Of a stretch of DNA of 64,000 bases, positions 13,349 to 39,335 are shown piece by piece; within the stretch, counting starts at the first letter, position 1, and each line of letters begins with the position of its first letter. Source of the stretch: Candidatus Nanoarchaeia archaeon (GTDB taxonomy: Archaea; Nanobdellota; Nanobdellia; Pacearchaeales; GW2011-AR1). The DNA is taken from assembly GCA_028711165.1 (NCBI GenBank), contig JAQTST010000001.1, forward strand, positions 300,520 to 364,519, read 5' to 3'. Under the pieces are notes generated by a model, which did no database searches, had not been told where the DNA came from, and saw only the letters and a list, made by a program, of their open reading frames with translations. The translations under genes were made by a program, and so were the position numbers.

Positions 13349-15418
13349 ATGAATAATAAAAGAGGTTTATCAACGATCATTATGACTTTGATAATAATTC
13401 TCGTCTCACTAGTTGCAGTAGGAATTTTCTGGGTTGTTGTTCAAAATTTGATTAAAGGAAGTTCAGAAAATATTGGATTTGGAAGTTTAACTTTAAACGC
13501 AGAAATTAAAGGAGTTCAGATTGATAATTCGTCGAATAATGTAAGTCTAATTGTCAAGCGAAATACAGGAGAAGGAGACATGACTGGAATCAAATTTATT
13601 TTTTACAGCGACGATAAAAACGAAATCATCGAGCAGGATATTCAACTTGAAGAACTTGAACAAAAAAGTTTCCACTTTCATTTGGCGATGAATGTTTCAC
13701 TTTTAACAAAAATTTCTATTTATCCAATTTTCCTTTCTGGCGGAAAAGAAAACGTTGGAAATATTGCAGATAGCTATGATGTCAAAACAGGGACGAGAAT
13801 TGTGATTCCACCGTCGGGATGTACGCCAACAACAAATCCATGCGGAAGCAGAATCTGCGGAAATATTGCAAACGGAACCTGCGGAAGCATCAGCTGCGGA
13901 ACCTGTTCAGTAGGAACCTGCAACGCAACAGGACAATGTGCAACAAGCTGTGTACCGACGACATGTGAAGCATTAGGACACAATTGCGGAAGCGGTTATG
14001 CTAATGGGACATGTGCAGGAACACTAACCTGTGGAAGTTATGGGGGAGGCTGTCAGTCAGGATACACTTGCGTTGGTGGAACTTGTGTCGAGGAAACCGG
14101 ATACACTTGCGGAAATAATATCGTCGAGCCTGGAGAAGCATGCGATGGGACAAATCTTTCTGGTTACACTTGTGCAACAGTTGCAGCAGGATTTGCTTCG
14201 GGAAGTTTAAGCTGCAATTCAAACTGCAGAAGTTATGTCACAACTTCATGCGTTGCAGGAGACATAATAAACGCTGCTTCATGCTCTCAGGCAAATGTTC
14301 AGTCAGCAATTAATTCTGCCAGCGACGGAGATATTGTTCAAGTTCCTGCAGGAAGCTGTACGTGGAGCAGTACTGTAACTATTAATTCAAAAAATATAAT
14401 ATTGCGCGGGGCGGGAATTGACAAGACAAATATTACTGACGGAACAGGCACGGGCTGGAATGAAAATTTAATCAATGTAAATTGTGTAGAAGGCAAACCT
14501 TTCCGTGTCACTGGATTTAGTTTTCCCTGCGTTGTTGGAGACGGTACTTATAAAATTTATGTCGCTGGAACCTGCAAAAACTGGCGTGTAGACCATTCTA
14601 AATTTGAAGCTACTGGTGCTCCGCCAAAAGCCTCTGCAGTCATACCTGATGGTTATACCTACGGAGTTATAGATCACTGTATATTTAATGATGCAAGAAA
14701 CTGGATGGATGGGGATGGCGGTAATTCGTGGACGAGACCGCTTAATTTAGGAACCTCGGAAGCAGTATATATAGAAGATAATTATTATTATCAAACTGTC
14801 TTTGGAAATGTAGTCGACTCTAGCGACGGAGCATCTTATGTATTCCGTTATAATAGAGTTAATGGAACTGCTGACGGAGGATACATAGAAGCTCATAGTG
14901 GCTGTCCAAACGGACAGAGAGCGACGTTTAAATATGAAATTTATAATAATACTCTTAATCTAAACGATGTATGGGCTCTTGCTGGATTGAGGGGAGGAAC
15001 GGGCGTTGTTTTTGATAATATTTTTACTGGTGTTTCTGTAGGCGTTCCACATATTTCAGTTGACGATGAAAGAACATGCGCCCCTTATAATGGCTGTATT
15101 GGACTTTGGTCTGGGTGGAATTCTACCTGTAATGGAACTTCTCCTTACGATGGCAATACTCCGGGCATGTTTGGTTATGCCTGCAGAGACCAGATTGGAC
15201 GTTCGACAGATTCGGGTATTTTAACACCGCAGTCACTTGAACCATTGTATGAATGGGACAATAAATATAATGGAAATGATGTAGACATTGTGATTAATCC
15301 TGTGGCGTGCGCCCTGACATCTGTTCATATTCAGGAAAACAGAGATTATTACAATGACATGGAGAGACCAAATTATGTTCCTTATGCTTATCCTCATCCT
15401 ATTGCTTTAATTAATTAG
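13349..15418 (+). CDS. Surface protein: class III (archaeal type IV pilin-like) signal peptide, conserved ~150-aa module, Cys-rich repeats, right-handed beta-helix-like domain (paralog A)
   Basis: N-terminus MNNKRG/LSTIIMTLIIILVSLVAVGIFWVVV. Cys-rich CG..CG repeats including CGNNIVEPGEACDG. Then SCSQANVQSAINSASDGDIVQVPAGSCTW followed by a beta-helix-like region. The C-terminus YPHPIALIN is shared with paralog C. Confidence 0.75.
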   Translation: MNNKRGLSTIIMTLIIILVSLVAVGIFWVVVQNLIKGSSENIGFGSLTLNAEIKGVQIDNSSNNVSLIVKRNTGEGDMTGIKFIFYSDDKNEIIEQDIQLEELEQKSFHFHLAMNVSLLTKISIYPIFLSGGKENVGNIADSYDVKTGTRIVIPPSGCTPTTNPCGSRICGNIANGTCGSISCGTCSVGTCNATGQCATSCVPTTCEALGHNCGSGYANGTCAGTLTCGSYGGGCQSGYTCVGGTCVEETGYTCGNNIVEPGEACDGTNLSGYTCATVAAGFASGSLSCNSNCRSYVTTSCVAGDIINAASCSQANVQSAINSASDGDIVQVPAGSCTWSSTVTINSKNIILRGAGIDKTNITDGTGTGWNENLINVNCVEGKPFRVTGFSFPCVVGDGTYKIYVAGTCKNWRVDHSKFEATGAPPKASAVIPDGYTYGVIDHCIFNDARNWMDGDGGNSWTRPLNLGTSEAVYIEDNYYYQTVFGNVVDSSDGASYVFRYNRVNGTADGGYIEAHSGCPNGQRATFKYEIYNNTLNLNDVWALAGLRGGTGVVFDNIFTGVSVGVPHISVDDERTCAPYNGCIGLWSGWNSTCNGTSPYDGNTPGMFGYACRDQIGRSTDSGILTPQSLEPLYEWDNKYNGNDVDIVINPVACALTSVHIQENRDYYNDMERPNYVPYAYPHPIALIN

Positions 15419-15456
15419 ACAGATAATATTTTAAATAATTCTTCTTATGTAAAATT

Positions 15457-15714
15457 ATGATAATAAAAGTTAAAGTGAAACCAAATTCTTCAAAGCAGAG
15501 CGTCGAGAGTTTTGGTGATAACAGATATTTAGTTCATGTCAAATCAGAACCAGAAAATGACAAGGCAAATATTGAAATGATAAAATTGCTCTCGAAAGAG
15601 CTTGGTGTTCCTGAAAAAAGTTTTCACATAAAATTCGGGAGAACCGGACATGAGAAAATGATAATGACAGAACTTCGTTCAGCACAAATAAAAATTCAAG
15701 GAGAATTTTCATAA
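15457..15714 (+). CDS. DUF167 (YggU-like) protein whose last 17 codons lie in a repeat element
   Basis: IKVKVKPNSSKQSVE...DKANIEMIKLLSKELGV...GRTGHEKMI fits the YggU pattern. The tail IMTELRSAQIKIQGEFS is encoded by repeat 15661..15717. Confidence 0.65.
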   Translation: MIIKVKVKPNSSKQSVESFGDNRYLVHVKSEPENDKANIEMIKLLSKELGVPEKSFHIKFGRTGHEKMIMTELRSAQIKIQGEFS

Positions 15715-15717
15715 TGA
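15661..15717 (+). repeat. Leader repeat copy A (ATAATGACAGAAC...CAGCACAAATAAAAATTCAAGGAGAATTTTCATAATGA)
   Basis: Matches 42288..42300 plus 42350..42386 almost exactly (one indel). It supplies the SD (GGAG) and ATG of the next gene. Confidence 0.85.
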
Positions 15718-16115
15718 AATACGAATTTGCCGACGATTTGCAGAAACTTGCCGAAGAAATTTCTCTGATGTTTTTTCCGCATGTTGATTTGTCGAATGTA
15801 AAATGCTACAGAAGCTACGGAACTTCGTCGAGAGGAACAATAGCGAGATGCCACGCTCTGAACAAAATAATGCAGAAAGCAATCGGAATAAAAGCAGTTT
15901 ATGTCCTTGAATTTCTTGTTGAAAGATTTGAAAAGCTCGACGACGAAGAGAAAATCAAAGTTGTAATTCACGAACTGATGCACATTCCAAAAAGTTTTGG
16001 CGGAGGATTTATACACCATGATGTTGTTACAAACAGGAATGTAAATAGATGCTATGCCGAATACAAAAAGAAAAAAGAGGAAAAAGTTGAGAAGCAAAAA
16101 ATTAATTATTGGTGA
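15714..16115 (+). CDS. Predicted zinc metallopeptidase (HExxH; SprT/COG4900-like)
   Basis: HELMHIP motif in a ~130-aa protein of the small archaeal 'predicted metallopeptidase' type. Its start overlaps the upstream stop (TAATG). Confidence 0.6.
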   Translation: MKYEFADDLQKLAEEISLMFFPHVDLSNVKCYRSYGTSSRGTIARCHALNKIMQKAIGIKAVYVLEFLVERFEKLDDEEKIKVVIHELMHIPKSFGGGFIHHDVVTNRNVNRCYAEYKKKKEEKVEKQKINYW

Positions 16116-16431: not shown

Positions 16432-16492
16432 GACGAAACATTTAAATATATATTCGACGATATATTTATTAAAATCTGAAAGGAGGTGAAAA

Positions 16493-16648: not shown

Positions 16649-16689
16649 TCATATCAAATTTTTATTTTTTTATTTTAATTAATTTTCAA

Positions 16690-16808: not shown

Positions 16809-16836
16809 CAAATTCTAATTTTTTTATTTACAATAA

Positions 16837-18682: not shown

Positions 18683-18683
18683 A

Positions 18684-19535: not shown

Positions 19536-19583
19536 GTTTCTCTTTATCAAACTCTCCTTTAAATTTGGGTCACGCCTGATAAG
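19536..19583 (+). repeat. Intergenic repeat copy (GTTTCTCTTTATCAA...AATTTGGGTCACGCCTGATAAG)
   Basis: Near-identical to 11185..11232. It ends 20 nt before the TATA box of paralog B. Confidence 0.85.
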
Positions 19584-19603
19584 AAAAATAATTTTCAATA
19601 AAA

Positions 19604-19611
19604 TATAAAAA
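19604..19611 (+). promoter_or_regulatory. TATA box (TATAAAAA) 29 nt upstream of pilin-leader paralog B
   Basis: Promoter block conserved with 13320 and 21037. Confidence 0.6.
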
Positions 19612-19632
19612 CCCATTCTCATTATTTTAATA

Positions 19633-21012
19633 ATGAATAATAAAAAGGGGTTATCGACGATTATCATAACTTTGATTTTAATTCTTGTCTCGCTAGTTGC
19701 AATCGGGATTTTTTGGGTTGTTGTGAATAATTTAATTAAAGGAGGGACAGAAAATATCAGCGGGTTGGGGAGATTCACACTCAGTGCCGAGATTAAAGGT
19801 GTCAGCATCGATAACTCATCAAATGAGATTACCTTGAGTGTAGAAAGAAAAGCTGGAGCTGGAGAGATGGCGGGAATAAAATTTATTTTTTACAGTGATA
19901 CAGATACAGAAATTGTTACTGAAGATATTGAACTCGAAGAATTAGCGCAAAAACAATTTACTTTTCATCTGGTAATGAATGTTAACGATGTAACAACAAT
20001 TTCAATTGCACCAATTTTCAGTTCCGGCGGAGAGGATAGTGTTGGAAATGTTCTTGATACTTATAATCTTGAAGAAGAAGGAGTTACTCCTCCTTGTACG
20101 CCAACAACAAATCCCTGCGGGACTGCTGTCTGTGGAAATGTTGCAAACGGAACCTGTGGAAGCATCAGTTGCGGAACTTGTTCGGGAGGACTAAGTTGTG
20201 TTGCAGGACAATGTGTTGCTGGTTGTACTCCTTCATCATGTGATTCTCTCGGATATAATTGCGGAGGACCTTACACCAATGGAACCTGTCCAGGAACATT
20301 TAGTTGCGGAACTTGTTTAGGAGGACAAACTTGTGTTGGTGGGCATTGTCAGACTAGCAGTTCTGGTTTATATGCATATTATCCGTTTAATGGAAATGCA
20401 AATGATGAAAGTGGTAATGGATACGATGGAATTGTTAATGGGGCTGATTTAACGACAGACAGAGATGGAAGTCCTAATAGCGCTTATTGGTTTAATGGAA
20501 TTACCGGAGGAGATAGCATTCTAGTTGGGACAGGAACAGAATTTTCAAATGTGTGCAATAATGGATGCACTTTTAGCACATGGATAAATGGGAGCGATGT
20601 AATACCTGGTTATATGGGTTCAATTATTAGCAAAAGCCAATGGGGGGTAGATTTTTTTAGTTTAGGTTATGATATTTGGGGCAGAGGAATCTTTACTATC
20701 AGCAGCAATGGAGTACAATCAGATACTACTTATTGTTCAGAATTTCAATCTGGATTTGTATATAATACATGGACTCATATAGCAGCGACATATAATGGAA
20801 GTGCAATAAGAGTATATTTCAATGGGGTGGGGGGAACAATTAAAATTTGTAATTTTACAAGTATCAACCAATCAGCATGGGCTGTTTCACAAAACACTTA
20901 TATTGGAATGGCTAGTGATAGCACCTATAATACAAATGGAACAATAGATGATTTAAGAGTTTATAATCGAACTTTAAGCGAAAGTGAAATATTGGCTTTG
21001 TATAATGAATAA
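19633..21012 (+). CDS. Surface protein: class III signal peptide module, Cys-rich repeats, LamG/concanavalin A-like lectin domain (paralog B)
   Basis: MNNKKG/LSTIIITLILILVSLVAIGIFWVVV. C-terminal LamG_3-like pattern: LYAYYPFNGNANDESGNGYDG...WTHIAATYNG...IDDLRVYNRTLSESEILALYNE. Confidence 0.75.
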   Translation: MNNKKGLSTIIITLILILVSLVAIGIFWVVVNNLIKGGTENISGLGRFTLSAEIKGVSIDNSSNEITLSVERKAGAGEMAGIKFIFYSDTDTEIVTEDIELEELAQKQFTFHLVMNVNDVTTISIAPIFSSGGEDSVGNVLDTYNLEEEGVTPPCTPTTNPCGTAVCGNVANGTCGSISCGTCSGGLSCVAGQCVAGCTPSSCDSLGYNCGGPYTNGTCPGTFSCGTCLGGQTCVGGHCQTSSSGLYAYYPFNGNANDESGNGYDGIVNGADLTTDRDGSPNSAYWFNGITGGDSILVGTGTEFSNVCNNGCTFSTWINGSDVIPGYMGSIISKSQWGVDFFSLGYDIWGRGIFTISSNGVQSDTTYCSEFQSGFVYNTWTHIAATYNGSAIRVYFNGVGGTIKICNFTSINQSAWAVSQNTYIGMASDSTYNTNGTIDDLRVYNRTLSESEILALYNE

Positions 21013-21036
21013 TTCTCTTTTAATAAAATATAAAAT

Positions 21037-21044
21037 TATAAAAA
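21037..21044 (+). promoter_or_regulatory. TATA box (TATAAAAA) 29 nt upstream of pilin-leader paralog C
   Basis: Promoter block conserved with 13320 and 19604. Confidence 0.6.
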
Positions 21045-21065
21045 CCTGTTCCTGTTATTTTAATA

Positions 21066-32500: not shown

Positions 32501-33290
32501 GGGAGGGGGCGGCGGAGCAATAACAAAAGCACCTGCTGCTCAATTTACCGTCAATGTAGAAAGCATTGAGAGGACTCTTATAATAAATGATATGGAATTC
32601 GGGCAGGTATGGGTTAATAATAATGGAAATTCCCGTCAGACTTTTAATATAAAAGTTGAAGTATTGAATTCATCCATTATACCTGAAGAGTATTCTATAA
32701 GCATTGCTCCGAAGAGCTCGGACAAATTTGATTTCAAAATAAATTCTCCAAGCGTCGCAGGAATCTATACTGGAAAAATAATTATCTCCAGCGGATATCA
32801 GCAGAAAGAGGTTCTTGTTACTCTGAACATCAAAACAGAAAAAAGTCTTTATGATGTAACAATCACAATTCCAAAATCAATGAAAACTATTGAACCTTCT
32901 GAAACTTTATCGTCGCAGATAGACCTTCTTCAGATGGGGAGAAAAGAAAAGATGGATGTTACTGTAACTTACATTATCAAAGATTTTAACGGGAAAATTT
33001 ATCTTTCTGAAACAGAAACTATCGCAGTTGAAAATCAGAAAACTCTTGAAAAAGATTTTAATACAGAAGAATTCCCCGAAGGAGATTATGTCTTGGGAGT
33101 TGAATTAATTTATCCCGACGGAATTGCTGTTGCAAGTTCTCATTTTAAAGTCATGGGAAAAATTCCTTCCCCAATTGACTTTCCGACGATTATCGTTGCC
33201 TGTCTGACTGCCTTAATTTTAGCAGGAATTTATTTTGTGATAAGAAGATATAAGAAAACAATTAAACTCGCGAGGAAAAGGAAGAAATAA
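23514..33290 (+). CDS. Giant (3258 aa) membrane-anchored surface protein: N-terminal TM, beta-helix-like region, 3 LamG modules, 6 near-identical ~89-aa Ig-like repeats, C-terminal two-domain module plus TM anchor
   Basis: One uninterrupted ORF with an SD (GAGAGG) upstream. N-terminal TM VIFIPILFLLIFAFMFFYF and C-terminal TM IIVACLTALILAGIYFVI followed by a basic tail. N-x-S/T sequons are very dense (8 per 89-aa repeat, by my count). Confidence 0.85.
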   Translation: MVYKRYIKKGGKVYGPYSYSNHKENGKVVTEYLGKESSVKEKKLNSSSVIFIPILFLLIFAFMFFYFKPTIFSSITGNDILDGKISSSFEFGDTKYVELLVKTSDNVPSKADKKDWTSEMIKTERAYSGKQGYIVTAKPEGWHWGDLERDPKRYMIIKIPISEFNESWFEPEYNYSAPIYAPNDKEKIIGYEILTERKYKISVEDVLTNQELNDLKKIPYNDKEVRPAIEKTIEDISNFIIYNDWENRSEDLKLHGSSGVFSICDGINNATPCSYTSLAAWETAEDGDITATGPCIANITGIWTVNDTTPLAIAGWTTNTSSYVKIVTEPLARHGGKWNWTAYRLVTANSAGITFTTVNNAFVEGIQIYNTGYNGDNQGGILFRDSTGFMNISVSHNIVRGTPGSAQQYNDGIQAYTTIAGSKVSVWNNIIYNYQGGTDGGNCIANWDSTSTFYAYSNTVVNCSNGISNKGGAILAKNNLAEAGTCYLGTFTAESDYNACNGTDTTGTGTHNPTSINFVFADKANADFHLSASDTAVINNGTDLSADGNISFSDDIDYDLRTGTWDIGADEYIPIRRINQNGSVGTNPVHELLVSLSGCTAGDVIIVGVGRWAETIGTAPATDQFVGTNTGSISLAVNDTGQNSYSALLWTTVAADGNVIINWTLPGTETAYLVIGIAEYSGMNNTNPVNSTNHTSGVSTNGFTGEVNVGEGELLVAFIAGDLFAQTRPAGYDSIYNQPSANNNLPADMCDYLPSAGAYNTTWTNGNDDWTAVGAAFQSIAEIAADNPPVSILSAPPNNNISDLGIVTFQCNATDDFNLENVTLYIWNSSKGIIHTNSTNWNGTTNSTTFTYNFTFYNSTEWNCLVYDNASQGAFASANRSLIISSIDTIYPVFFSYYDNNATLIDTGTGLFNVSVNNTNGTVWLEINKVNTTAYNVTANVYNTTYTFATGGNYDYRWHAYGNGTNNNYNSSEWKSYTVNTTVLSDTTPPNINFSAPTPANASTQSANAIFVNVSVTDTSNVSAFIDFNRSLVAWYGFDSYNATGIFDNSSYENFGVVTGATYTSSGARGGAFSFNGVDGQNSILTSNNINLTSNFTISVWAKRYAGNILYQTAGSGILWTYNGGAFYDDVSNWQSGTALASGVWYHLVLVGNGTNIKMYQNGVLDATIIQNNIGYNSQPIYIGSHPWSNTFNGSLDELMIFNRIFSLEEINASYNAGVYKLYRNFTDLSNATYNFTAYAIDLAGNINKTGQREVTINTSYSAPTGDTTPPIINFSAPTPANASTQSANAIYVNVSVSDANNVSAFIDFNRSLAEWYNLNDRNSTAVFDNSSYEKFGIISGAVYTSSGARGGAFTFDGVDDYINVQNGSYYYDVCKNGCTVSAWVNAEPTSENDEMYVFSRYYWDNAVMTLSYDKFKQISFGIDDDLTIGGACTASSGVLLTFNAWQHLVGIYNGSDTLIYLNGLLLDTTSCGFSSLNEAAWRATGKFNIGNNGDGGNTVNGTIDEVMIFNRVLSSEEINASYNAGVYKLYRNFTDLSNGNHTFRAWAIDASGNINKTDLRLVNITTLEAPAGDTTPPDINFTYPTPANASTQSANAIYVNVSVSDANNVSAFIDFNRTLRLWFNFESWDGGATVVDNSTYGEDGTVTGGTIDGNGIRGHAINFSGGDSDGIDVTSIDVNPYRNFTVSFWVKKVYDSAASNLELIDKRDNPRTFHLYASTGDAVVFQVYNTSEEIQGDIGTGDNSLQDKNWHHVVAGYNGTTFIYLDGVFKQAGVITGEINTGSGNMQIGKNFINGAEFNGSIDEVMIFSRALTSEEISATYNAGVYNLYRNFTDLINGNYTYRAWAIDASGNINKTEPRTVNVSVAGDTTPPTISVIYPNDGTNSSNKLINVNYTAKDETAISACWYSNDTFTYNYSLADCGTNITGVTWAEGIHNVTIWVNDTAGNNNSASVRFTIDSIAPSISILYPANNSNHSNNLIDVNYTFSDLNAQSCWYSNDTFTYNYTLTDCGTNITDVTWAEGIHNVTVWGNDSFNNVNFSNVIFTIDTIKPGISILTPTSGTNSSNNLLDVNYTTSDINIQSCWYSNDTFTYNYTLTNCGTNITDVIWSEGIHNVTVWGNDSFNNENFSNVIFTIDSIKPGISILTPTTGTNSSNNLLDVNYSASDINIQSCWYSNDTFTYNYTLTDCGTNITDVTWADGIHNVTVWGNDSFNNVNFSNVIFTIDATAPNLTFFSQLPPDISTSNLFGEMLEINYTINDVTSSLNTSTIKLYYKSNSTTSDVNYYQNGTAYSGFFSKDYDSNYSEYFKFSADDNKIYIGTYNLDESYIETAPKTAYDLDLVAEYVKIQLINVTNQYPYNIFEIYAQNQTATSNTLRIYYCNSSYTTGNPVGNAGCTDFYNLGAASPFNHTHSENSKHHAIPLAINVTSGMVGNVYVTNTSYFLLRGRTGVNAWNVYYTTTPSRAAAMQTSTNNGVAWTEVSGTVDAHLHQYNGTASFWYYVCANDTLGNQNCSSVRQDLFNLSGLPPSAPNIYSPSQATYAGTININYTASLSLNSYPIVIYNISLANVSDESFISAIKTNNSANLSYAWDSTGIVEGQYIIRVEACDNQNQCSFGYSENFSIDNAKPGISILSPVEGTNTTNNQIDINYTASDINLQSCWYSNDTFTYNYSLANCGTNITDVTWAEGIHNVTVWANDTVNNQNWTSVRFTIDSIKPGISILTPTTGTNSSNNLLDVNYTFSDLNAQSCWYSNDTFTYNYTLTDCGTNITDVTWSDGIHNVTVWGNDSFNNENFSNVIFTIDTIPPYFTNLATQEIYSTQKLEYDINAKDDGIGLQSFALYNWTANFSIVATTGVLTNASPLASGNYYLNLSVNDTLGNTNYSILLINVTSDTIPPNVEIISPTATTYTTSAISFESRTNENSSCNYSLDAGITNLSLTPNSTQTGHTSSATLSNADYVSYFYCSDSAGNQNNSENINFTVNVAAVVPPVVEEKGGGGGGAITKAPAAQFTVNVESIERTLIINDMEFGQVWVNNNGNSRQTFNIKVEVLNSSIIPEEYSISIAPKSSDKFDFKINSPSVAGIYTGKIIISSGYQQKEVLVTLNIKTEKSLYDVTITIPKSMKTIEPSETLSSQIDLLQMGRKEKMDVTVTYIIKDFNGKIYLSETETIAVENQKTLEKDFNTEEFPEGDYVLGVELIYPDGIAVASSHFKVMGKIPSPIDFPTIIVACLTALILAGIYFVIRRYKKTIKLARKRKK
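26469..29117 (+). repeat. Three tandem ~281-307-aa modules (DTTPPxINF..PTPANASTQSANAI.VNVSV..., then a LamG domain, then YRNFTDL...AIDxxGNINKT)
   Basis: In-frame module starts at 26469, 27312 and 28233; the next DTTPP is at 29118. Long identical DNA stretches occur at the module boundaries. Confidence 0.85.
29136..30206 (+). repeat. Four tandem 267-270-nt coding repeats (ISIL.P..GTNSSNNLLDVNYT.SD.N.QSCWYSNDTFTYNYTLTDCGTNITDVTW..GIHNVTVWGNDSFNN.NFSNVIFTID)
   Basis: Unit starts at 29136, 29406, 29673 and 29940, all in frame. Confidence 0.9.
31404..31937 (+). repeat. Two further copies of the same 267-nt coding repeat
   Basis: Unit starts at 31404 and 31671. Unit 6 is nearly identical at DNA level to unit 2 (29406..29672). 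Confidence 0.9.
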
Positions 33291-33314: not shown

Positions 33315-34496
33315 ATGCAAAAGAAGAGGTGGTTGATAATTTGCGCAGTTATAGTTCTGCTTTCAGCAGCCGGCTTTTTTGTATACTCGCAATTTTTGAC
33401 AGAAAAAGATTTTACGAAAACCAGTCTTATAAAAGTAAACATTCCCACCGACGGAGAATATGAGATAAGCGTAAAAATTACAAACCCCGAGCAGACTGAG
33501 CAGTTAATAAATTTTTCAATTAACAATTTTAATAATATTGCAACTTTCTCTGATTCTGAATTCTATTTACAGCCAGGAGAAAGCCAGAATCTAATTATTT
33601 CTTTCAAAGATAACATTCACACCCCAGAAGTTTATGTCGGGAAACTGATTATCCGGGACTCTGTTTCAAAAGAAGAAATACCTGTTATCCTCGGTGTTGA
33701 AGATTCAAATTCTGCATTTGCAATTATTCCTTCTGTCCTCCCCAAATATGATTCTGTTTATCCCGGTGATAAATTTGGAATTGATTTAAAGGTTTTTGAT
33801 TTGAAAAACTCAAATGTTCCGACGGTAAAAGCAAATTATGAAATAAAAAATTTAGACGGCGAAACAATTTTAAACGGAGAAACTGAAATTGCCGTCGATG
33901 ATGGCGGTAAAACTGAGATTATAAACATTCCAAAAGACTGGGGGACAGGAGATTATGTCTTCGTTATAACTATAAATTATAAAGATACGATAAGTTTTTC
34001 GAGTTATCTTTTTTCTATTTCCAGTTTATACAAGAAAAATTTTCTTTCTGAAATGAATTTTATTTTAATGCTTGTTATTTTATTCGTTGTAATTATCATC
34101 GGGCTTGTAATATATTTTATCACTGCAAGAGATTCTCTTTTTATCCGACTCCGACGACAACAATCTCAGGAGATAAGAAGAAATCTCAAATGCATTGCTT
34201 ATTCAAGAAGAGCTATCAGAAAATCCAGAGAGAAACCTGCAAAGAAAAAAGAGAAAATCAGAAGATTAAACAGAGTAAAGAAAAAAATTATCAGGAGAAT
34301 AAGAGAAAAACAAAGAAGACAGAAAAGAGAAATTTCCCGACTTAGAAAAATAAAAGCAAAACGAAATACTTTAGACAGGAAACTCCAAGGCTGGAAAAAA
34401 CAGGGATATAAAATGTACGAAGCTAAAGAGGAATTACACGGCACAAACATCCAGAAACAGCTTGGAGACTGGAAAAAACAAGGTTACAAGATTTAA
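33315..34496 (+). CDS. Membrane protein paralogous to the C-terminal module of the giant protein, with a long Lys/Arg-rich cytoplasmic tail
   Basis: N-terminal TM/signal, two beta-sandwich-like domains collinear with giant-protein residues ~2990-3200 (e.g. GDYVFVITINY vs GDYVLGVELIY), TM FILMLVILFVVIIIGLVIYFI, and a basic tail with two WKKQGYK motifs. Confidence 0.65.
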   Translation: MQKKRWLIICAVIVLLSAAGFFVYSQFLTEKDFTKTSLIKVNIPTDGEYEISVKITNPEQTEQLINFSINNFNNIATFSDSEFYLQPGESQNLIISFKDNIHTPEVYVGKLIIRDSVSKEEIPVILGVEDSNSAFAIIPSVLPKYDSVYPGDKFGIDLKVFDLKNSNVPTVKANYEIKNLDGETILNGETEIAVDDGGKTEIINIPKDWGTGDYVFVITINYKDTISFSSYLFSISSLYKKNFLSEMNFILMLVILFVVIIIGLVIYFITARDSLFIRLRRQQSQEIRRNLKCIAYSRRAIRKSREKPAKKKEKIRRLNRVKKKIIRRIREKQRRQKREISRLRKIKAKRNTLDRKLQGWKKQGYKMYEAKEELHGTNIQKQLGDWKKQGYKI

Positions 34497-34538: not shown

Positions 34539-34587
34539 ATGACTGAAACAAGTTCAGTACAAATAAAAAGAGGACTTTTATATAATG
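34539..34587 (+). repeat. Leader repeat copy D (diverged): ATGACTGAAACAAGTTCAGTACAAATAAAAAGAGGACTTTTATATAATG
   Basis: Aligns with copy A (ATGACAGAAC-TTCGTTCAGCACAAATAAAAATTCAAGGAGAATTTTCATAATG). It ends in the SD (GAGG) and ATG of the Lys/Arg-rich protein gene. Confidence 0.55.
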
Positions 34588-35610
34588 GTGAAAAAAAGGA
34601 TTTCTAGAAAGAGAAGAACTAGCCAAAGAGCCAGTGCTCTGCCGTCGACTAAAAAAGAATTTGAAACTTTTGCATTTGGCGTCGAGAGATTGAAAGAACT
34701 TAAACGGGAATTGAACTCTTTAAACACAAAAGGATTCTCTCAGGAAGCACAGGAAATAAGAGCAAAATTAAAAATTGTTTCAGAAGTTCCAAACATTGAA
34801 AGACTGCTCAAAAGATTAAAATTGAAAATAAAAGGGAAACACCCTTCTCCTAAAGAAAAAAGAAAAGATAAAATACAAAGTAAAGTAAAAAATAAAGTAA
34901 AAAGTAAAATACCTGATAAAATACAAAGTAGAATCAAGAATAGAACCGAAGAGATTCACGACGATATTGAAGATATAAAAGAAGACCTTGAACAAAACCT
35001 TCCAAGTATAAAATCTGAAATTAAAAAACTTGGGAAGAAAGTTGAAAATATGGGGGGCCAAAATTTATCTTTCAAAGTGACTCCTGTCGGTGTAAGAATA
35101 AACACAAGAAAAAAGAGAAAGAATAAAGTCAAAAGAAAAAAAGCAAAAACGCCTAAGATAAAAAAAAGAAGGATAAGACACAGAAAAAGAAAAGTAAGGC
35201 AAAAGAAAGTGAAAGTCAAAAAGGAAGTAAAGAAGAAAAGAAGAAGCAGGAAAAATAAAGTCAGAAGAAAAAAAGCAAAAATCACAAAATCAAAACCTGC
35301 TAAGAAAGTGAAATCTCCTGAAACAAAAAAAAGGAAAAAGAGGAAAGTAAGAAAACATAAAAGAAAAATTTCACGAGTAAAATCAAAGCCAAAGAGGCGA
35401 GTCCGAAAACACAGAAAAACTTCTAAACCTGATAAAGAACAGGAAATCAAAAGTAAAATTCTAAGAATGCTGGCGAGTAAGAAAGGATTGCATCTGAAAG
35501 AAATTAAAAAAAGACTGAAGAAAATGGGAATTAGAAAAAGTAAAAGAGCGATACTCAAGTACATAAAGAGCATGGAAAAAGAAGGAAAAATAAAGGAAAG
35601 GAAATATTAA
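34585..35610 (+). CDS. Extremely Lys/Arg-rich protein with C-terminal winged-helix-like domain (possible nucleic-acid/chromatin-binding protein)
   Basis: 341 aa with long KKRKKRKVRKHKRK-type tracts. The C-terminus ILRMLASKKGLHLKEIKKRLKKMGIRKSKRAILKYIKSMEKEGKI resembles a wHTH. Confidence 0.55.
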   Translation: MVKKRISRKRRTSQRASALPSTKKEFETFAFGVERLKELKRELNSLNTKGFSQEAQEIRAKLKIVSEVPNIERLLKRLKLKIKGKHPSPKEKRKDKIQSKVKNKVKSKIPDKIQSRIKNRTEEIHDDIEDIKEDLEQNLPSIKSEIKKLGKKVENMGGQNLSFKVTPVGVRINTRKKRKNKVKRKKAKTPKIKKRRIRHRKRKVRQKKVKVKKEVKKKRRSRKNKVRRKKAKITKSKPAKKVKSPETKKRKKRKVRKHKRKISRVKSKPKRRVRKHRKTSKPDKEQEIKSKILRMLASKKGLHLKEIKKRLKKMGIRKSKRAILKYIKSMEKEGKIKERKY

Positions 35611-35622
35611 CCTTCAATAAAC

Positions 35623-35630
35623 TTAAAAAC
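35623..35630 (+). promoter_or_regulatory. TATA-like box (TTAAAAAC) 29 nt upstream of pilin-leader paralog D
   Basis: Same spacing as paralogs A-C. Confidence 0.45.
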
Positions 35631-35651
35631 TATTTTCTCTTAATTTTATCA

Positions 35652-38600
35652 ATGAACAAGAGGGGTAAAAGAAAAAATAAAATTTCTAGGAAGGGTTTAT
35701 CGACGATTATCATGACTATGATAATTATTTTTGTTTCTCTCGTCGCTGTTGGAATTTTCTGGGCTGTCATCAATAATCTGCTGAAAGGAGGTTCTGAAAA
35801 TATCGGACTTGGAAAAATAACTTTCAGTGCAGAAATAAGCCAGGTTCACGTCGATAATTCTTCAAATAATGTCAGTTTCAAAATCACCAGAAAAGTCGGG
35901 ACAGGAGATATTGTCGGAATGAAATTTATTTTTGAAAATTCAGCAGGACAGGAAATAGCAACAGAACTTTTTGAATTGTCTGAATTAGCGTCGAGGAAGT
36001 TTCTAATTCATCTGACAATGGATGTTTCATCAATAACAAAAATTTCTGTTGTGCCTTTGTTTAAATCTTCAAAAGCAGAATACACCGTCGGAAATGTTGT
36101 TGCAATCTATAATTTGAAAGGAACAGAATCAGCAACTTACATTTGCGGAAACGGAATTTCAGAGCCAGGAGAATTCTGCGACTCGCCTGACCTCGACGGA
36201 GCAACATGCCAGAGTTTGGGTTTCATGTCGGGAACCTTAGACTGTTCAGCATCCTGCTCTTACAACACTTCACAATGTGTTTCAGTACCTTCATCCTGTG
36301 ATTTATGTTCAGATTGTGAAGAAGGTGTTCTTGATACTTGTTCTTATTCAGAATGTCATAGCTGCAATGGAACATGTTATTACAGAGGAGATATTTGGTT
36401 TGCTGAAGATTGTGTTTCTGTAACTGAAGCTTGCTCATCTTTAGTAACTCAATGTCTGGAATATTCAACTTACGAATGCAACAACGACCCTTGCAACTTA
36501 AATTGTGAATTAAACGGAACAGTCTGCATCGAATCAATTCCTGAAGCTCCTCCTGTAAACATAACTCCAATTTTATGGTACAAGTTCGACGGTAATTTAG
36601 CTGATAGCTCAGGAATTTCTCCTGCTCTCGACGGAAGCTGGGTTGGCAGTGCAGGAACTTTCGTTGCTGGTGTCGACGGACAAGCGGTTAATTTGGCAGG
36701 AACTGACGGAATCTCTTCTTCAGATAACAGCCGGCTTAATTCTATGGATAAATTAACTGTTTCGGTTTATGCAAAAAAGAATGATGCGGCTCAGGGAGGT
36801 TATTTAATTTTCAAACATATAGAATATACTTTAATTATCGGAGTGAATTCAGTTTATGGGAGTGTCTATACCTCTGCTGGTCCGGTTGAAAGGGCTTTTT
36901 CTGCAACAGCAAATATTAACGATACTAATTGGCACCAATATACATTAACTTATGATGGAGTACGAGTAAAGCTTTTCGTCGACGGCGCAGAATTAACTTC
37001 TGTACTCGCTGGCGGTAGTGTTTATACTGGCTCTGGACTTGGACTTTATGTCGGAAAAGATCCTTGGGGTGCTACATTCAACGGACAAATCGATGACGTT
37101 AGAATTTACAATGATTCAGTAACTCCGCCCGAATGTTCTCCCGGAAGCACTAAACTTTGTGATAAACAACTTGGAGTTTGTGCCGGAAGCACGCAGACTT
37201 GCAATTCCGGACAGCATTGGCCTGGCTGTACAACATCAACTTATTTTGCTTATGATTCTCATTATTTAGCAATTGAAGGACCTCTTGGAAATCCAAGCTG
37301 CAGCGACGGATATGATAATGACTGCGACGGAAATACCGACGGAACTGATACTGGCTGCATGAATCTTTACACACTTAATACGAGGACAGGAGAAGATGCT
37401 TTATTTGATGCTGTTAAAGTTATGAATTATTACGGGGCAGGATTTGCTAACTGGAGTTACATTTACGACTGGAACTTTGGTGATGGAATTTATAACGATC
37501 CTACTTCAATATTAGATGATGGTGGAATTGCTATGCTCCATAACTATCCTGCTGAGGGAAGCAGAGAAGCTACTTTAACCGTTCACAAAGCTGATTTAGT
37601 TTATTACGAATGGGGGCCTGATTTAGTTGGCTATGGCGATTTAGTCGGGGAATATCCTATAATTGTAAACACCGTCGGAGAATATTCAACTGCATTTGAA
37701 TTGTGGCACGCTCCTTATCACGCGAGAACCGGACAGTGGATTTATGCAAGACTTGACAATGACCCTGCTGTTGATTATGATAATGATGTTACCTTAGATA
37801 TTAGTTCTTATCCTGCTTACAGAATGACTGCTGTTCTTACAAGAGACAGCGGCGGGTATACTGAAACTTTATTTAACGCTGACAGAAGTTTGAATACTGA
37901 AGAAAGATTTTTATTAAATAATTCTAAATTGTCGTCGGGAAATTACACTTTATCTGTCAAGATTTTAAGTTCTCTTGGCGGAAGTGTTGTTCAGCAAATT
38001 GATGAGCATTTTGAAAAACCTTACAACGGAATTCCGACAGTCGGCATTGACGAGAATAATAATTTCAGACTTAACGGAGAATTATATTTTCCTGTGACTC
38101 CTTTTGGTTTGGATTATGATTATGTTCCTGAATGGGCAAATAAATACATTAACACCCTTGAAGTTCAGGGATGGGATGCTGAATTTTTTACTCCCCAGAC
38201 TTTTGCTGAACATCTTGATATAGCCAGTGCAAATAATCTCAAATCAATCGGGCCTGAATTATGGTGGGGAAATAATTACGACGGAAAACAGAGAATGCAC
38301 TTCGAGAGAAATTCAAATATCTCACGAGTTATTGAATATATTCAGTATAATAAAAATCACCCTGCTTTATTCGGCTGGTTATGGGACGATGAACCAAACA
38401 TGGGCGGGCAGACGGGTTTTATAGTTCCAGAAGCATTAGCAACCTGGTCGTATTTAACTTTCAAGTATGACCCTCAGCATCCTGTATTTATGCAATTGCT
38501 TGGTGCAGATTATCTTCCTTATTATTGGGATATGGATTACAGATTGGGTTTTGATTATATGTATAACTCAGAATATTTTGGAAAGAAAACTTCTCTTGCA

Positions 38601-39335
38601 GATGCCGTTGGTTTTGACATCTATCCTATTGAATATCAGTATGAACTTAATTTAGTTAATCCTACCCGCGGTCCTATTGACATGTGGCTTACTGCTATCG
38701 AAAATTTAAACACGGCAAATTATGGTTTGTCTCCTTTAGCTGTATTTATTGAGACACAGGATTTAAGAGCAGAAGATTTGACTAATCCTCCCGGCTGTAC
38801 TCCTTACGACCATGCTACTAATACCACCGGAACCTGTTATGCTCAGATTATGAATTGGCCATGGACAAAAGGACCAAGTCCTGAAGAAGTATTAATGGAA
38901 AGCTGGGCAGCAGTTATTCACGGAGTTAAACATATCAGCTGGTTCCATTATCACACACCTACACCTCCTGAAAATTTTGCAGCAATGGCAAAATTCTACA
39001 GCCATATTACTCAGCTGACAAAAATAGTTCTTGCTCCAAATACTACAAGAACTTTGACAGACAATTCAAATGTAAGAGGAAACAGGGTTGATACAATGAT
39101 AAAAGAAAATAGTTCAGACATTTACATTTTTGCAGTCAGAGTTACAGAACCAGATACTGAATGGGATGAAACTTTTGAACCAGTTTCTGTTTCAACAACT
39201 TTTAATGTTGGCGGGACTACTTCAGGAACAATTAGTGTATTCAATGAAAGCAGAACTTTGACATTATCCGGCGGGCAATTTACAGATACATTTAACAGAT
39301 ACGCATATCACATTTATAGAATCCCCAAGAGTTAA
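35652..39335 (+). CDS. Surface protein: class III signal peptide module, Cys-rich repeats, LamG domain, Cys-rich region, PKD-like domain, C-terminal glycoside hydrolase-like (clan GH-A-like) region (paralog D)
   Basis: RKG/LSTIIMTMIIIFVSLVAVGIFWAVI. CGNGISEPGEFCD repeat. LamG pattern (ILWYKFDGNLADSSG...IDDVRIYND). PKD signature YDWNFGDGIYND. C-terminal region with HPALFGWLWDDEPN, reminiscent of the NEP acid/base motif of TIM-barrel glycosidases. Confidence 0.7.
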   Translation: MNKRGKRKNKISRKGLSTIIMTMIIIFVSLVAVGIFWAVINNLLKGGSENIGLGKITFSAEISQVHVDNSSNNVSFKITRKVGTGDIVGMKFIFENSAGQEIATELFELSELASRKFLIHLTMDVSSITKISVVPLFKSSKAEYTVGNVVAIYNLKGTESATYICGNGISEPGEFCDSPDLDGATCQSLGFMSGTLDCSASCSYNTSQCVSVPSSCDLCSDCEEGVLDTCSYSECHSCNGTCYYRGDIWFAEDCVSVTEACSSLVTQCLEYSTYECNNDPCNLNCELNGTVCIESIPEAPPVNITPILWYKFDGNLADSSGISPALDGSWVGSAGTFVAGVDGQAVNLAGTDGISSSDNSRLNSMDKLTVSVYAKKNDAAQGGYLIFKHIEYTLIIGVNSVYGSVYTSAGPVERAFSATANINDTNWHQYTLTYDGVRVKLFVDGAELTSVLAGGSVYTGSGLGLYVGKDPWGATFNGQIDDVRIYNDSVTPPECSPGSTKLCDKQLGVCAGSTQTCNSGQHWPGCTTSTYFAYDSHYLAIEGPLGNPSCSDGYDNDCDGNTDGTDTGCMNLYTLNTRTGEDALFDAVKVMNYYGAGFANWSYIYDWNFGDGIYNDPTSILDDGGIAMLHNYPAEGSREATLTVHKADLVYYEWGPDLVGYGDLVGEYPIIVNTVGEYSTAFELWHAPYHARTGQWIYARLDNDPAVDYDNDVTLDISSYPAYRMTAVLTRDSGGYTETLFNADRSLNTEERFLLNNSKLSSGNYTLSVKILSSLGGSVVQQIDEHFEKPYNGIPTVGIDENNNFRLNGELYFPVTPFGLDYDYVPEWANKYINTLEVQGWDAEFFTPQTFAEHLDIASANNLKSIGPELWWGNNYDGKQRMHFERNSNISRVIEYIQYNKNHPALFGWLWDDEPNMGGQTGFIVPEALATWSYLTFKYDPQHPVFMQLLGADYLPYYWDMDYRLGFDYMYNSEYFGKKTSLADAVGFDIYPIEYQYELNLVNPTRGPIDMWLTAIENLNTANYGLSPLAVFIETQDLRAEDLTNPPGCTPYDHATNTTGTCYAQIMNWPWTKGPSPEEVLMESWAAVIHGVKHISWFHYHTPTPPENFAAMAKFYSHITQLTKIVLAPNTTRTLTDNSNVRGNRVDTMIKENSSDIYIFAVRVTEPDTEWDETFEPVSVSTTFNVGGTTSGTISVFNESRTLTLSGGQFTDTFNRYAYHIYRIPKS

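Follow-up and report, generated by a model that had tools for sequence, protein, structure and literature searches.

Predicted modular type IV pilins with lectin and putative enzyme cargo in a DPANN archaeon

Class III signals on proteins with large cargo, which the original prediction had set apart from classical pilins as something new, have precedents in both bacteria and archaea. Raynaud et al. (2021, PMC8179133) characterised bacterial modular pilins in Streptococcus sanguinis, whose PilB has a vWA module and whose PilC has a concanavalin A-like lectin module; InterPro holds more than 1,200 examples, many from CPR bacteria. It is the pilin module by which such pilins, those with PF13385 cargo included, are polymerised (PMC8179133). 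Archaea have 0 occurrences in that report. The Sulfolobales bindosome (PMC4371748; bioRxiv 10.64898/2026.04.22.720090) employs large, non-pilin-sized proteins with an archaeal class III signal and carbohydrate-directed cargo, encoded at a distance from the assembly machinery. Two "relatively large pilins" of Haloferax volcanii, co-regulated with PilB4/C4, appear in the pertinent section of Pohlschroder and Esquivel (2015, PMC4371748), and the pertinent section of Makarova et al. (2016, PMC4858521) describes arCOG02911, variable-length minor pilins of 250-550 aa that are FlaFind-positive and Ig-like. Like the proteins considered here, these have class III signals, are predicted there to be minor pilins and exceed typical pilin size; unlike them, they are described in those sections as all-beta and Ig-like, with no lectin or enzyme module mentioned. 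DPANN archaea are barely sampled in Makarova et al., a paper with 0 occurrences of "DPANN" (PMC4858521). A parallel by analogy only is offered by the episymbiotic Saccharibacteria (CPR), whose type IV pili (T4P) are thought, in the relevant part of PMC12206443, to mediate host recognition and binding; the ultrasmall, host-dependent lifestyle is similar, whereas the machinery and pilins there are bacterial.

The window (the whole 64,000-nt stretch of DNA analysed) contains four genes, A to D, whose open reading frames were confirmed where they had been predicted (Table 1). A profile hidden Markov model (HMM) of their common N-terminal part matches exactly these four in the window (E 3e-51 to 2e-59), as expected from the original prediction, and a motif scan likewise returned A-D and no further ORF. 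Our reading, to which we give a probability of roughly 0.7, is that A-D are modular archaeal type IV pilins, each a complete pilin followed by a disulfide-rich stalk and a carbohydrate-directed cargo. They would then be the archaeal counterpart of the bacterial modular pilins, with which they share an N-terminal module resembling ordinary small pilins joined to a C-terminal functional module, a PF13385 (LamG_3) lectin as cargo (a common architecture there), the coexistence, within one pilin family, of members with cargo and members that stand alone, and a proposed role in presenting adhesins or enzymes on a filament, probably at its tip. They differ in an archaeal-type signal, G|LST with V or I and never Glu at +5; in a predicted Ig-like beta-sandwich head, as in archaeal pilins; and in a connector that is a 100-170-aa disulfide-rich stalk, not the short loop or linker of characterised bacterial examples, which it greatly exceeds in length. 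The likeness to the bindosome lies in protein size, signal type, gene placement and carbohydrate-directed cargo; unlike the bindosome proteins, A-D have a full pilin head domain and neither an SBP domain nor an adjoining ABC transporter.

Table 1. Features of genes A to D and of two neighbouring genes (window positions)
Feature	Positions	Strand	Remarks
Gene A	13349-15418	+	689 aa
A upstream block	13305-13348	+	TATAAAAAC at 13320-13328, -29 from ATG; alignment, repeat family D1
A pilin module, aa 1-147	13349-13789	+	leader MNNKRG, predicted cleavage G|L; HMM E 2.9e-57
A stalk, aa 149-318	13793-14302	+	CGNNIVEPGEACD at aa 254; Cys pattern
A cargo, aa 303-689	14255-15418	+	predicted right-handed beta-helix, pectate-lyase-like
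Gene B	19633-21012	+	459 aa
B upstream block	19589-19632	+	TATAAAAAC at 19604-19612, -29
B pilin module	19633-20073	+	leader MNNKKG, predicted cleavage G|L; HMM E 3.7e-55
B stalk, aa 146-254	20068-20394	+	Cys pattern
B cargo, LamG / concanavalin A-like lectin, aa 305-453, to stop codon	20545-21012	+	PF13385, E 2.9e-18
Gene C	21066-23444	+	792 aa
C upstream block	21022-21065	+	TATAAAAAC at 21037-21045, -29
C pilin module	21066-21509	+	HMM E 2e-59
C stalk, aa 150-315	21513-22010	+	CGNNIVEPGEACD at aa 251
C cargo, aa 300-792	21963-23444	+	paralog of A cargo; extra Cys-rich insert, aa 594-671
Gene D	35652-39335	+	1227 aa
D upstream block	35608-35651	+	CTTAAAAAC; TTAAAAAC from 35623, -29; more diverged than A-C
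D pilin module	35652-36125	+	longer basic leader MNKRGKRKNKISRKG, predicted cleavage G|L; HMM E 2.8e-51
D stalk, aa 165-305	36144-36566	+	begins with CGNGISEPGEFCD
D LamG, aa 350-494	36699-37133	+	PF13385, E 5e-18
D middle region, aa 495-793	37135-38030	+	second small Cys-rich block and PKD-like segment
D C-terminal 434-aa domain, putative glycoside hydrolase	38031-39335	+	clan GH-A-like; invariant W-x-W-D-E-P
Giant surface protein, 3258 aa	23514-33290	+	TM segments near either end; LamG x3 (LamG_3 stretches) and Big_13
393-aa membrane protein	33315-34496	+	paralog of the giant protein's C-terminal 230 aa

The part common to A-D is about 145 aa long (53-82% identity), somewhat more than the predicted ~130 aa, and sequence and model together support its being a whole type IV pilin domain rather than a leader peptide alone. 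The predicted pilin part comprises a short basic leader, a class III site, a hydrophobic alpha-1 helix and an Ig-like beta-sandwich. Each of the four has the pilin-like signal as described, (K/R)G|LSTII followed by some 25 uncharged residues. The conserved motif of the module is K-(K/R)-G|L-S-T-I. Of 154 family members, all have S at +2, 152 have G at -1, 147 have K or R at -2 and 142 have L at +1; the leader has a median of 7 aa, and a median of 25 uncharged residues follows. The site resembles KGQV and RAVS, sites that figure among the experimentally studied archaeal ones in PMC4371748. The AlphaFold2 (AF2) model of the gene A module has a helix at 5-39 and strands over 48-144 forming a beta-sandwich (pLDDT 81), and the full-length model again shows helix plus beta-sandwich. 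Foldseek matches are weak and mostly to generic Ig/FN3 folds; one weak match is to the archaeal T4 pilus of Pyrobaculum calidifontis (8fk7_A, E 9e-3, TM 0.43 on the target). The module stays below threshold with the Pfam Pilin_N and NCBIfam models, PF07790 being matched in 12 of 66 members, always sub-threshold; a profile search of PDB sequences found no pilin; and in Pfam scans no family of any kind matches the module, hence no bacterial pilin model does.

The whole-pilin reading also draws on relatives: the module is homologous both to stand-alone 150-aa pilins and to a pilin of T4P operons. Nearly all matches in a word-indexed search with the module are stand-alone proteins of 149-163 aa with the same N-terminus, and about half of the module's relatives are such ~150-aa proteins: 63 of the 158 family proteins retrieved have 200 aa or fewer (95 are longer, maximum 1128 aa), and 48 of 89 complete family ORFs in species genomes are short (142-170 aa), the other 41 spanning 222-1951 aa. 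A profile search of 1.84 billion representatives (50%-identity clusters) gave 5282 clusters, 2805 of them at E<=1e-10, for a family that has no Pfam coverage. The family is restricted to DPANN among the genomes scanned, 76 of 79 family loci being labelled DPANN or unclassified archaeal MAGs. As predicted, the module stays constant among relatives while the cargo varies: of 92 long members surveyed, 15 have LamG_3 and 4 have Beta_helix, and Apiosidase, Peptidase_C25, F5/8-C and GH130 occur once each. Protein B is identical over its full length to P0015, and full-length counterparts elsewhere exist for A (P0036), C (P0027, 64% in the cargo) and D (P0031, 56-68%).

A T4P operon with five pilin-like genes, a T2SSE ATPase and two T2SSF genes is present in all six related Woese-/Pacearchaeota loci that were examined. 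In each, the pilin-like ORF directly upstream of the ATPase matches the family HMM (E 1e-11 to 1e-15); its N-terminus, where read, is of the KKG|ISGVI...VWVVVxN type. One locus, L005, has two cargo-bearing family members within the operon itself, together with T2SSE ATPase (E 5e-35) and T2SSF: one of 354 aa with LamG-like sequence, the other of 530 aa and Cys-rich. Only one of the 79 family loci, and one of the six operon loci, shows such adjacency of strong family members and machinery; the majority of family genes lie dispersed between housekeeping genes, away from T4P genes. For A-D themselves, a prepilin peptidase, ATPase or platform gene was sought among the window's larger ORFs, where, as originally noted, there is none, and within 10 kb on either side, again with no find; hence their incorporation into a filament is something we infer. 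No peptidase A24-like motif occurs in 1.2 Mb of related loci.

The module, in which none of A-D has a Cys, is followed in all four by a Cys-rich region (aa 146-318 in A-C, 173-305 in D), which AF2 models with low confidence in gene A (residues 148-302). The repeat CGN(G/N)IxEPGExCD, expected in every gene, is present in A, C and D but absent from B. LamG was correctly assigned in B and D (PF13385). A and C had been credited with two different beta-helix domains; their cargos are instead divergent paralogs, with RVDH, VFRYN, LRGGTG, CRDQIGR, NRDYY and YPHPI(A/S)LIN in common and the same homologs in other genomes. Both may be pectate-lyase-like beta-helices, an assignment that we hold tentatively: for gene A, TIGR03805 beta_helix_1 scores E 6e-7, below cutoff, AF2 gives a short-strand solenoid over 303-560 (pLDDT mostly 75-95), Foldseek weakly matches the phage beta-helix 7chu_A and pectin methylesterases, and the homolog P0036 matches Pect-lyase_RHGA_epim (E 1e-5). 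The PKD predicted in D is sub-threshold in D itself (PKD_4, E 0.004), though PKD does occur in homologs of its cargo: the middle region is 68% identical to P0031, where PKD_4 reaches E 2e-4 (below the curated cutoff), and PKD is also present in bacterial proteins homologous to the C-terminal domain. That C-terminal domain has 66 homologs, the source-named ones bacterial. The glycosidase-like character claimed for it is suggested by distant profile matches against PDB (GH158 at E 1.4e-5 on top, followed by GH5 and GH2 over that segment), with the DEP motif aligning with GNE of GH158.

The promoter block was predicted for all four genes, but only A, B and C carry TATAAAAAC, at exactly -29; the sequence in D, CTTAAAAAC, falls outside the predicted pattern. 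Nor is the block a special feature, since an A/T-rich TATA-like box lies at about -30 upstream of most window genes inspected and the 9-mer TATAAAAAC is not enriched in the window (9 observed, 6.5 expected); what had been taken for a shared promoter is, for the most part, the TATA box found generally in this genome at -30, and the gene A mRNA is probably leaderless. The gene-specific part is an upstream stretch of some 45 nt that was duplicated; its copies in A-C are 72-75% identical to one another, with weaker similarity in D. Repeat family D1 has copies at 13291-13473, 19575-19757 and 21008-21190 (75-79% identity).

How might such proteins work? A-D would be inserted in the membrane via the N-terminal helix, and a prepilin (class III signal) peptidase would cut off the 6-15-aa leader. 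T4P machinery of the kind seen in all six related loci, presumably encoded elsewhere in this genome, would then raise the pilin module into a filament or short pseudopilus, with the bulky cargo sitting at the tip or off the shaft on its stalk. The original idea of a pilin N-terminus as a common handle for large cargo is supported, with the shared part enlarged to a whole pilin domain. The cargo would allow a small DPANN cell to bind, and perhaps cut, glycans of a host cell or environmental polymers, and A-D probably serve to display adhesins and glycan-cleaving enzymes on pili or close to them.

That display might occur with no long fibre at all. The class III N-terminus, whether cleaved or intact, might be an anchor, or belong to a short envelope structure of bindosome-like or pseudopilus type, with the Cys-rich stalk carrying the cargo across the surface layer; the setting of most family genes amid housekeeping genes would fit, as would the spacer-like 100-170 aa of the stalk, the difficulty of placing 300-1000 aa of cargo along a filament shaft, and the match with Sulfolobales sugar-binding proteins, whose class III signals are served by T4P-like base machinery encoded elsewhere. 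Nevertheless we regard this account as fairly unlikely, because a mere anchor would need no head domain, and A-D, unlike bindosome substrates, keep a full one that is homologous to stand-alone and operon pilins. Moreover, two family members sit within the T4P operon of L005, and PMC8179133 reports that T4P incorporate bacterial modular pilins of comparable size by way of the pilin module, with the tip as their most probable position. Far harder to credit is an ordinary Sec signal or signal-anchor joined to an unrelated conserved domain, the pilin likeness being superficial. The sub-threshold scores of every curated pilin model, the pilin-free PDB sequence search and the mostly generic Ig-like Foldseek matches would suit it, but conservation peaks at the boundary between charged leader and hydrophobic stretch (G-1, S+2), which is where class III peptidases cut and Sec signal peptidase does not. 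It also runs against the predicted helix and beta-sandwich, the half of the family that consists of the module alone, and homology to the pilin-like gene of the T2SSE/T2SSF operon at 6 of 6 related loci.

A different kind of explanation, which we think improbable, is a recombination-driven polymorphic system, in which promoter, pilin module and Cys-rich linker form a constant 5' cassette and cargo is shuffled to vary surface specificity. Genes A and C are mosaic at the DNA level, 88-99% identical over linker and cargo start (13741-14344 versus 21461-22052) but only 74-86% identical across the pilin module, with near-random similarity farther 3', a pattern that suggests gene conversion or a recombination breakpoint; the ~45 nt upstream were copied together with the genes, and linker repeats are common to many family members. 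However, the DNA adjoining A-D has no cargo cassettes that are silent or lack a promoter, no recombinase genes and no inverted repeats, and the cargos of A and C are paralogs of each other. Full-length counterparts of each complete architecture exist in other genomes, which points to gene lineages that are stable and do not switch rapidly. The earlier comparison with polymorphic cassette systems is therefore not supported; immunity-like genes are likewise absent.

Genes A-D do not form the single contiguous surface-protein locus that had been envisaged, since genes for Kae1 and the ribosomal proteins L7Ae, S28e and L24e separate A from B. The wHTH proposed for a 341-aa Lys/Arg-rich protein gained no confirmation from a Pfam scan. 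The 3258-aa giant protein is present as described, and having no match to the pilin-family HMM it stands outside the pilin family. Its small paralog is likewise real, the 393-aa ORF aligning with the giant's C-terminal 230 aa at 22% identity (blastp, E 2e-13).

The observation behind the original prediction is real, and the core of its interpretation holds with corrections. The four ORFs A-D exist as described, and their first ~145 aa align at 53-82% identity, with an HMM of this N-terminal module matching only A-D among the window ORFs (E 3e-51 to 2e-59). The module contains no Cys in any of the four and is followed immediately in each by the Cys-rich region. The repeat CGN(G/N)IxEPGExCD, announced for all four, occurs in A, C and D and is absent from B; the LamG assignment was borne out, PF13385 (LamG_3) scoring above the Pfam threshold in B and D. 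The common promoter, T(A/T)TAAAAAC, fared less well: in A, B and C the ATG is indeed preceded by TATAAAAAC at a distance of exactly 29 nt, but D has CTTAAAAAC, and the motif was rejected as a specific common promoter because it is found 9 times in the window against 6.5 expected and a TATA box at -30 is generic there. What is truly common upstream of A-C is ~45 nt of DNA that was duplicated together with the gene. Most genes inspected over 60 nt upstream (~30 genes) have an A/T-rich TATA-like box (TTTAAA or TTTATAAA) centred ~30 nt ahead of the start codon, and an evident Shine-Dalgarno spacing was not noted in the same regions; the TATA-to-start distance suggests that mRNAs are mostly leaderless in this organism. 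The single surface-protein locus that had been proposed is broken by Kae1 and ribosomal protein genes between A and B. Gene B is found with the same neighbours in a second assembly (NCBI GCA_028714745.1, contig JAQTLT010000001.1), and it is present in the sequencing runs SRR22315506, SRR22315508 and SRR22315509.

Features of the window and of loci from related genomes (L numbers), with positions in the respective sequence
Source	Positions	Strand	Feature
Window	6453-7817	-	454-aa ORF, TTG start
Window	9854-9992	-	tRNA match, 139 nt
Window	10077-10910	+	Bacterial-type sigma-70 gene (regions 1.2, 2, 3, 4)
Window	11048-11170	+	tRNA match, 123 nt
Window	11088-11170		tRNA-Leu(AAG), ARAGORN
Window	13349-15418	+	A, 689 aa
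Window	13741-14344		A, module end through stalk into first cargo part
Window	15714-16115	+	Small ORF annotated PF18894 (PhageMetallopep)
Window	19633-21012	+	B, 459 aa
Window	21066-23444	+	C, 792 aa
Window	21461-22052		C, counterpart of A 13741-14344
Window	23514-33290	+	Giant protein, 3258 aa
Window	33315-34496	+	393-aa neighbour of giant protein
Window	34585-35610	+	341-aa protein, extremely Lys/Arg-rich
Window	35652-39335	+	D, 1227 aa
Window	38031-39335	+	D, last 434 aa (C-terminal domain)
Window	39417-41303	+	DNA gyrase B, bacterial-type
Window	42383-44914	+	DNA gyrase A, bacterial-type
Window	54304-54909	-	Unannotated 201-aa ORF
Window	54949-55653	-	DsbD_TM-type membrane protein
L005	1610-3748		DUF4215 protein
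L086	7064-8308		Pilin paralog with DUF4215 region, 414 aa
L087	891-1403		Sigma70_r2/r4 gene
L087	5248-6972		DUF4215 protein
L090	4997-7009		DUF4215 protein
L091	5507-6340		DUF4215 protein

On the evidence, A-D are best read as modular type IV pilins. An archaeal type IV pilin signal consists of a short charged leader, Gly or Ala at -1 and at least ~20 hydrophobic residues kept in the mature protein. The corresponding sequence is MNNK(R/K)G↓LSTII in A-C and ...SRKG↓LSTII in D (arrow, expected cut point), followed in each by ~25 uncharged residues; the mature proteins would then begin at L7 in A-C and at L16 in D. Across 154 family members the leader has a median of 7 aa and the uncharged stretch a median of 25 residues, with G at -1 in 152, K or R at -2 in 147, L at +1 in 142 and S at +2 in all 154. 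Since conservation falls at the boundary between leader and hydrophobic segment, where prepilin peptidase cuts, and not past the hydrophobic core, the N-terminus appears to act as a class III signal; the archaeal class III sites KGQV and RAVS are similar to the family site (PMC4371748). AlphaFold2 models the module as a helix (residues 5-39) and a beta-sandwich (48-144), the head having a pLDDT of ~90. Archaeal pilins generally have the shape of a "lollipop," a long N-terminal alpha-helix topped by a globular beta-rich head, and by prediction the modules of A-D share this architecture. A Foldseek search with full-length A gave a weak match to the type IV pilus of Pyrobaculum calidifontis (8fk7_A, E 9e-3), and the module alone gave generic Ig/FN3/nanobody matches, none at E ≤ 1e-3. 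Pfam and NCBIfam scans of the four window proteins found no curated pilin family for the module, and its profile matched no PDB sequence. PF07790 (Pilin_N) was detected in 12 of 66 family members, each time under the curated threshold (best E 1.9e-4); CrgA-type transmembrane matches among the same 66 were spurious.

In other genomes the module stands alone as a protein. Querying with residues 1-152 of A brought up, with few exceptions, proteins of 149-163 aa that start with ...K(K/R)GLSTIV and span the entire module; on this sequence evidence the module is the equivalent of an ordinary small pilin. When the family profile was searched against 1.84 billion cluster representatives (clusters at 50% identity), it gave 5282 matches, 2805 of them at E ≤ 1e-10 and 480 at E ≤ 1e-30, a mix of 150-aa proteins and proteins of 250-1128 aa with the module N-terminal in all. 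Of the 89 complete members counted in species genomes, 48 have 142-170 aa and the other 41 have 222-1951 aa. In species-representative genomes, the relatives come almost all from Woesearchaeota, Pacearchaeota, Nanoarchaeota, Nanoarchaeia or unclassified archaeal MAGs, the exceptions by label being one Aenigmatarchaeota and one "bacterium." These labels and the archaeal gene content of the window point to a DPANN archaeon of the Woese-/Pacearchaeota group as its source. At least 5282 clusters, outside Pfam coverage, pair one pilin module with dozens of cargo types. In existing sources their genes are mostly unnamed or called "hypothetical protein"; the module profile would let them be named.

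The original prediction noted that no assembly ATPase, platform protein or peptidase is encoded in the window, and this is correct, also for 10 kb on either side. The link to pilus machinery comes from relatives. On the MAG contig JBDRGM010000017 (L005), two cargo-bearing members, one of 354 aa with LamG-like sequence and one of 530 aa with a Cys-rich region, lie within one operon together with several small pilin-like genes, an assembly ATPase of the T2SSE family (E 5e-35), a platform protein of the T2SSF family and a second platform-like gene. A search with this ATPase gave 74-82% identity in nearly all of the best 120 matches listed, the named ones among these being Pacearchaeota, Nanoarchaeota or unclassified archaeal MAGs. 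L005 and five further loci of its ATPase were compared, and in all six, five genes with class III-like N-termini come first, then the ATPase, a pair of T2SSF genes and a further two pilin-like genes. In 6/6 loci the family HMM recognizes a pilin-like ORF shortly before the ATPase gene (E 1e-11 to 1e-15); the module is hence a homolog of a bona fide operon pilin, for which the N-terminus in several loci reads KKG↓ISGVI...VWVVVxN. Family genes are mostly dispersed, away from the type IV pilus (T4P) operon; the family is tied to it by homology in six related loci and by position in one relative. A regex for peptidase A24-like GxGD(x)K in hydrophobic ORFs of the related loci returned nothing credible.

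Other genes of these operons deserve mention in their own right. In L086 a different pilin paralog, with the N-terminus KKG↓VSIMVGY, is enlarged by a DUF4215 Cys-rich region, so that cargo grafting may exceed one pilin family. Listed alongside it are the DUF4215 proteins of L005, L087, L090 and L091, from the several loci in which such a protein heads the T4P operon; in that of L005 the N-terminus is Sec-like and not of class III. An Archease gene adjoins the operon in L086, L087 and L090, with RtcB close after it in 3/3, both being RNA-ligase system genes.

Whole cargo-bearing architectures recur as well. Proteins of other genomes match A, C and D over their full architecture (P0036, P0027 and P0031, respectively), and when 92 long members were screened against Pfam, 15 had LamG_3 and 4 Beta_helix, with one case each of Apiosidase-like, Peptidase_C25, F5/8-C, GH130 and other families, most cargo having no Pfam match. 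There are beta-helix indications for A and C, but the claim of two different beta-helix domains was rejected, since the cargos are divergent paralogs of each other. The cargo of A matches TIGR03805 under the cutoff (E 6e-7) and is modeled by AF2 as a confident solenoid of short strands; Foldseek with full-length A gave weak matches only, including a phage beta-helix protein and pectin methylesterases, and its homolog P0036 matches a pectate-lyase-like Pfam family (E 1e-5). The A cargo had no match among PDB sequences, and Pfam at E ≤ 10 detected nothing in separate cargo segments of A, C and D except a weak PKD_4.

Between module and cargo lies a stalk of Cys-rich units, some of the type C..C..LG..CG......CG....CG.C..G..C..G.C and another that, we presume, resembles the DUF4215 / Myxococcus Cys-rich repeat; DUF4215 itself was detected only in neighbouring proteins of relatives. 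AF2 models the stalk at low confidence, and many family members have similar linkers. The stalk bears on whether this is a polymorphic or cassette-type system, as originally suggested. The DNA identity of A and C is 74-86% over the pilin module, rises to 88-99% between the module end and the initial part of the cargo, stalk included, and is near random further downstream. Such a mosaic points to gene conversion, or to a recombination junction within the stalk. This mosaic is the sole evidence for cargo shuffling, and it is opposed by the full-length counterparts in other genomes. Polymorphic systems carry arrays of alternative C-terminal cassettes that lack promoters, often along with immunity genes or elements dedicated to recombination; all four genes here are full genes with their own TATA box, and neither orphan cargo fragments nor, apart from the gene duplications, flanking repeats were found in the window. 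The cassette reading was considered and largely rejected.

A-D were also compared with two other known systems. The bindosome is one: its cargo is an ABC-transporter substrate-binding protein (SBP), the gene of which usually lies beside ABC transporter genes. A-D contain no SBP family, and their neighbours are housekeeping genes and other surface proteins. Moreover, the Sulfolobales substrates are binding proteins with the pilin-like signal only, unlike A-D (bioRxiv 10.64898/2026.04.22.720090; PMC4371748). The other is the modular pilins of bacteria, in which a small pilin carries a grafted functional module, PF13385 lectins included, that the filament displays, probably from its tip (PMC8179133). 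Like A-D, the proteins of Raynaud et al. 2021 (PMC8179133) combine an N-terminal module equivalent to a small pilin with an extra C-terminal functional domain that is not pilus specific. However, the bacterial proteins have the IPR012902 N-methylation site with Glu at +5 and a short linker, whereas the A-D family has V or I at +5 and A-D have a Cys-rich region of 100-170 aa; Pfam scans of the module matched no family and hence no bacterial pilin model. The archaeal signal lacking Glu at +5 and the long Cys-rich stalk argue against membership in the bacterial family, and by analogy A-D would work like modular pilins while standing outside that family as searched. They are a new archaeal form of a known principle and carry the modular pilin concept beyond bacteria into the archaea, and the family is very large and unannotated. 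We found no description of cargo-bearing pilins in DPANN archaea in the open-access literature, which is not proof of novelty. The 2016 archaeal T4P census barely sampled DPANN lineages (PMC4858521), and a 2026 preprint devoted to the type 4 filament systems of archaea covers substrate-binding proteins that bear class III signals, the words "modular" and "fused" being absent from it (bioRxiv 10.64898/2026.04.22.720090).

The cargo of D points beyond the archaea. The C-terminal domain of D has 66 homologs (P0279-P0344) at 27-47% identity, mostly proteins of 620-750 aa with a PKD domain; those with a named source are bacterial (Fibrobacter, Smithella, T9SS-sorted Bacteroidales, WOR-3). The domain thus also occurs in named bacterial and T9SS-sorted proteins that have no pilin part, and the existence of PKD plus this domain as a separate secreted bacterial protein suggests a cargo unit transferred between domains of life. 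It has no Pfam model and matched no Pfam family even at E ≤ 10, and as a single sequence it had no match in the PDB, the signal coming from the homolog profile only. That profile matched GH158 (E 1.4e-5), then GH5 mannanases and GH2, all on one segment of ~100 residues. Enzymes of clan GH-A are (beta/alpha)8 barrels whose acid/base Glu lies in an N-E-P-like motif and whose nucleophile is another Glu; in the alignment, the invariant W-x-W-D-E-P of the D domain faces the G-N-E of GH158, and E290 of the domain is a second, near-invariant Glu. The Glu of WDDEPN in D is residue 914. Tentatively, the sequence points to a hydrolase domain of clan GH-A type that probably came from bacteria.

For A-D themselves, we infer cleavage by the peptidase, incorporation into a filament (as opposed to display at the membrane or on a pseudopilus), enzymatic activity and a host-directed role. 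A broader reading, to which we give roughly one chance in five, is that DPANN archaea of the Woese-/Pacearchaeota type use one pilin scaffold as a general display platform, in which thousands of lineage-specific glycoside hydrolase, lyase, protease and lectin subunits would sit at the ends of disulfide-knotted stalks on type IV filaments, new specificities would arise via stalk recombination, and some cargo, such as the PKD and GH-A-like domains of D, would have come from bacteria. If true, this would be the main apparatus for host recognition and host-surface processing across a large part of archaeal diversity. DPANN archaea have seldom been brought into culture, and little is understood of how they recognize and attach to hosts or substrates; the family offers a concrete candidate set for this recognition, and its significance would grow if enzyme display on pili and stalk-mediated cargo exchange were shown.

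Several features of the surrounding genome are recorded here. In the giant protein, a cytoplasmic N-terminal stretch leads into a TM segment near aa 48-68 and then a very large extracellular part with three LamG_3 stretches, Big_13 and beta-helix-like sequence near aa 280-420, and it ends in a TM segment and a basic tail. Its 393-aa neighbour is a copy of its last 230 aa with a long Lys/Arg-rich tail. The wHTH ascribed to the 341-aa protein, which lies between surface-protein genes, was not found by Pfam, where it gave only a weak Baculo_PEP_C match. The DsbD_TM-type gene and the ORF adjoining it could be part of an extracytoplasmic disulfide system, relevant to many Cys-rich surface proteins; A, C and D have 30-39 Cys each. 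DNA gyrase and sigma-70 genes are additions known from DPANN archaea. Gyrase B and A follow directly 3' of gene D, and the sigma-70 gene stands amid otherwise archaeal genes (the window includes ThrRS with the archaeal editing domain, aIF2-gamma, aIF5B and Kae1), with a smaller Sigma70_r2/r4 gene near the T4P operon of L087. Sigma-70 genes are reportedly prevalent in Woesearchaeota (PMC8204110). The two tRNA matches are far longer than the usual ~75 nt and so probably contain introns; ARAGORN called tRNA-Leu(AAG) within one and missed the other. In the 454-aa ORF, PNP_UDP_1 phosphorylase and phosphoribosyltransferase domains are joined, where the public annotation has a 193-aa PRTase only; either the fusion is genuine, or an upstream gene was missed or is broken. 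The small ORF carrying the PF18894 annotation sits between A and Kae1, and directly before it is a PF1765-like ORF of 85 aa.
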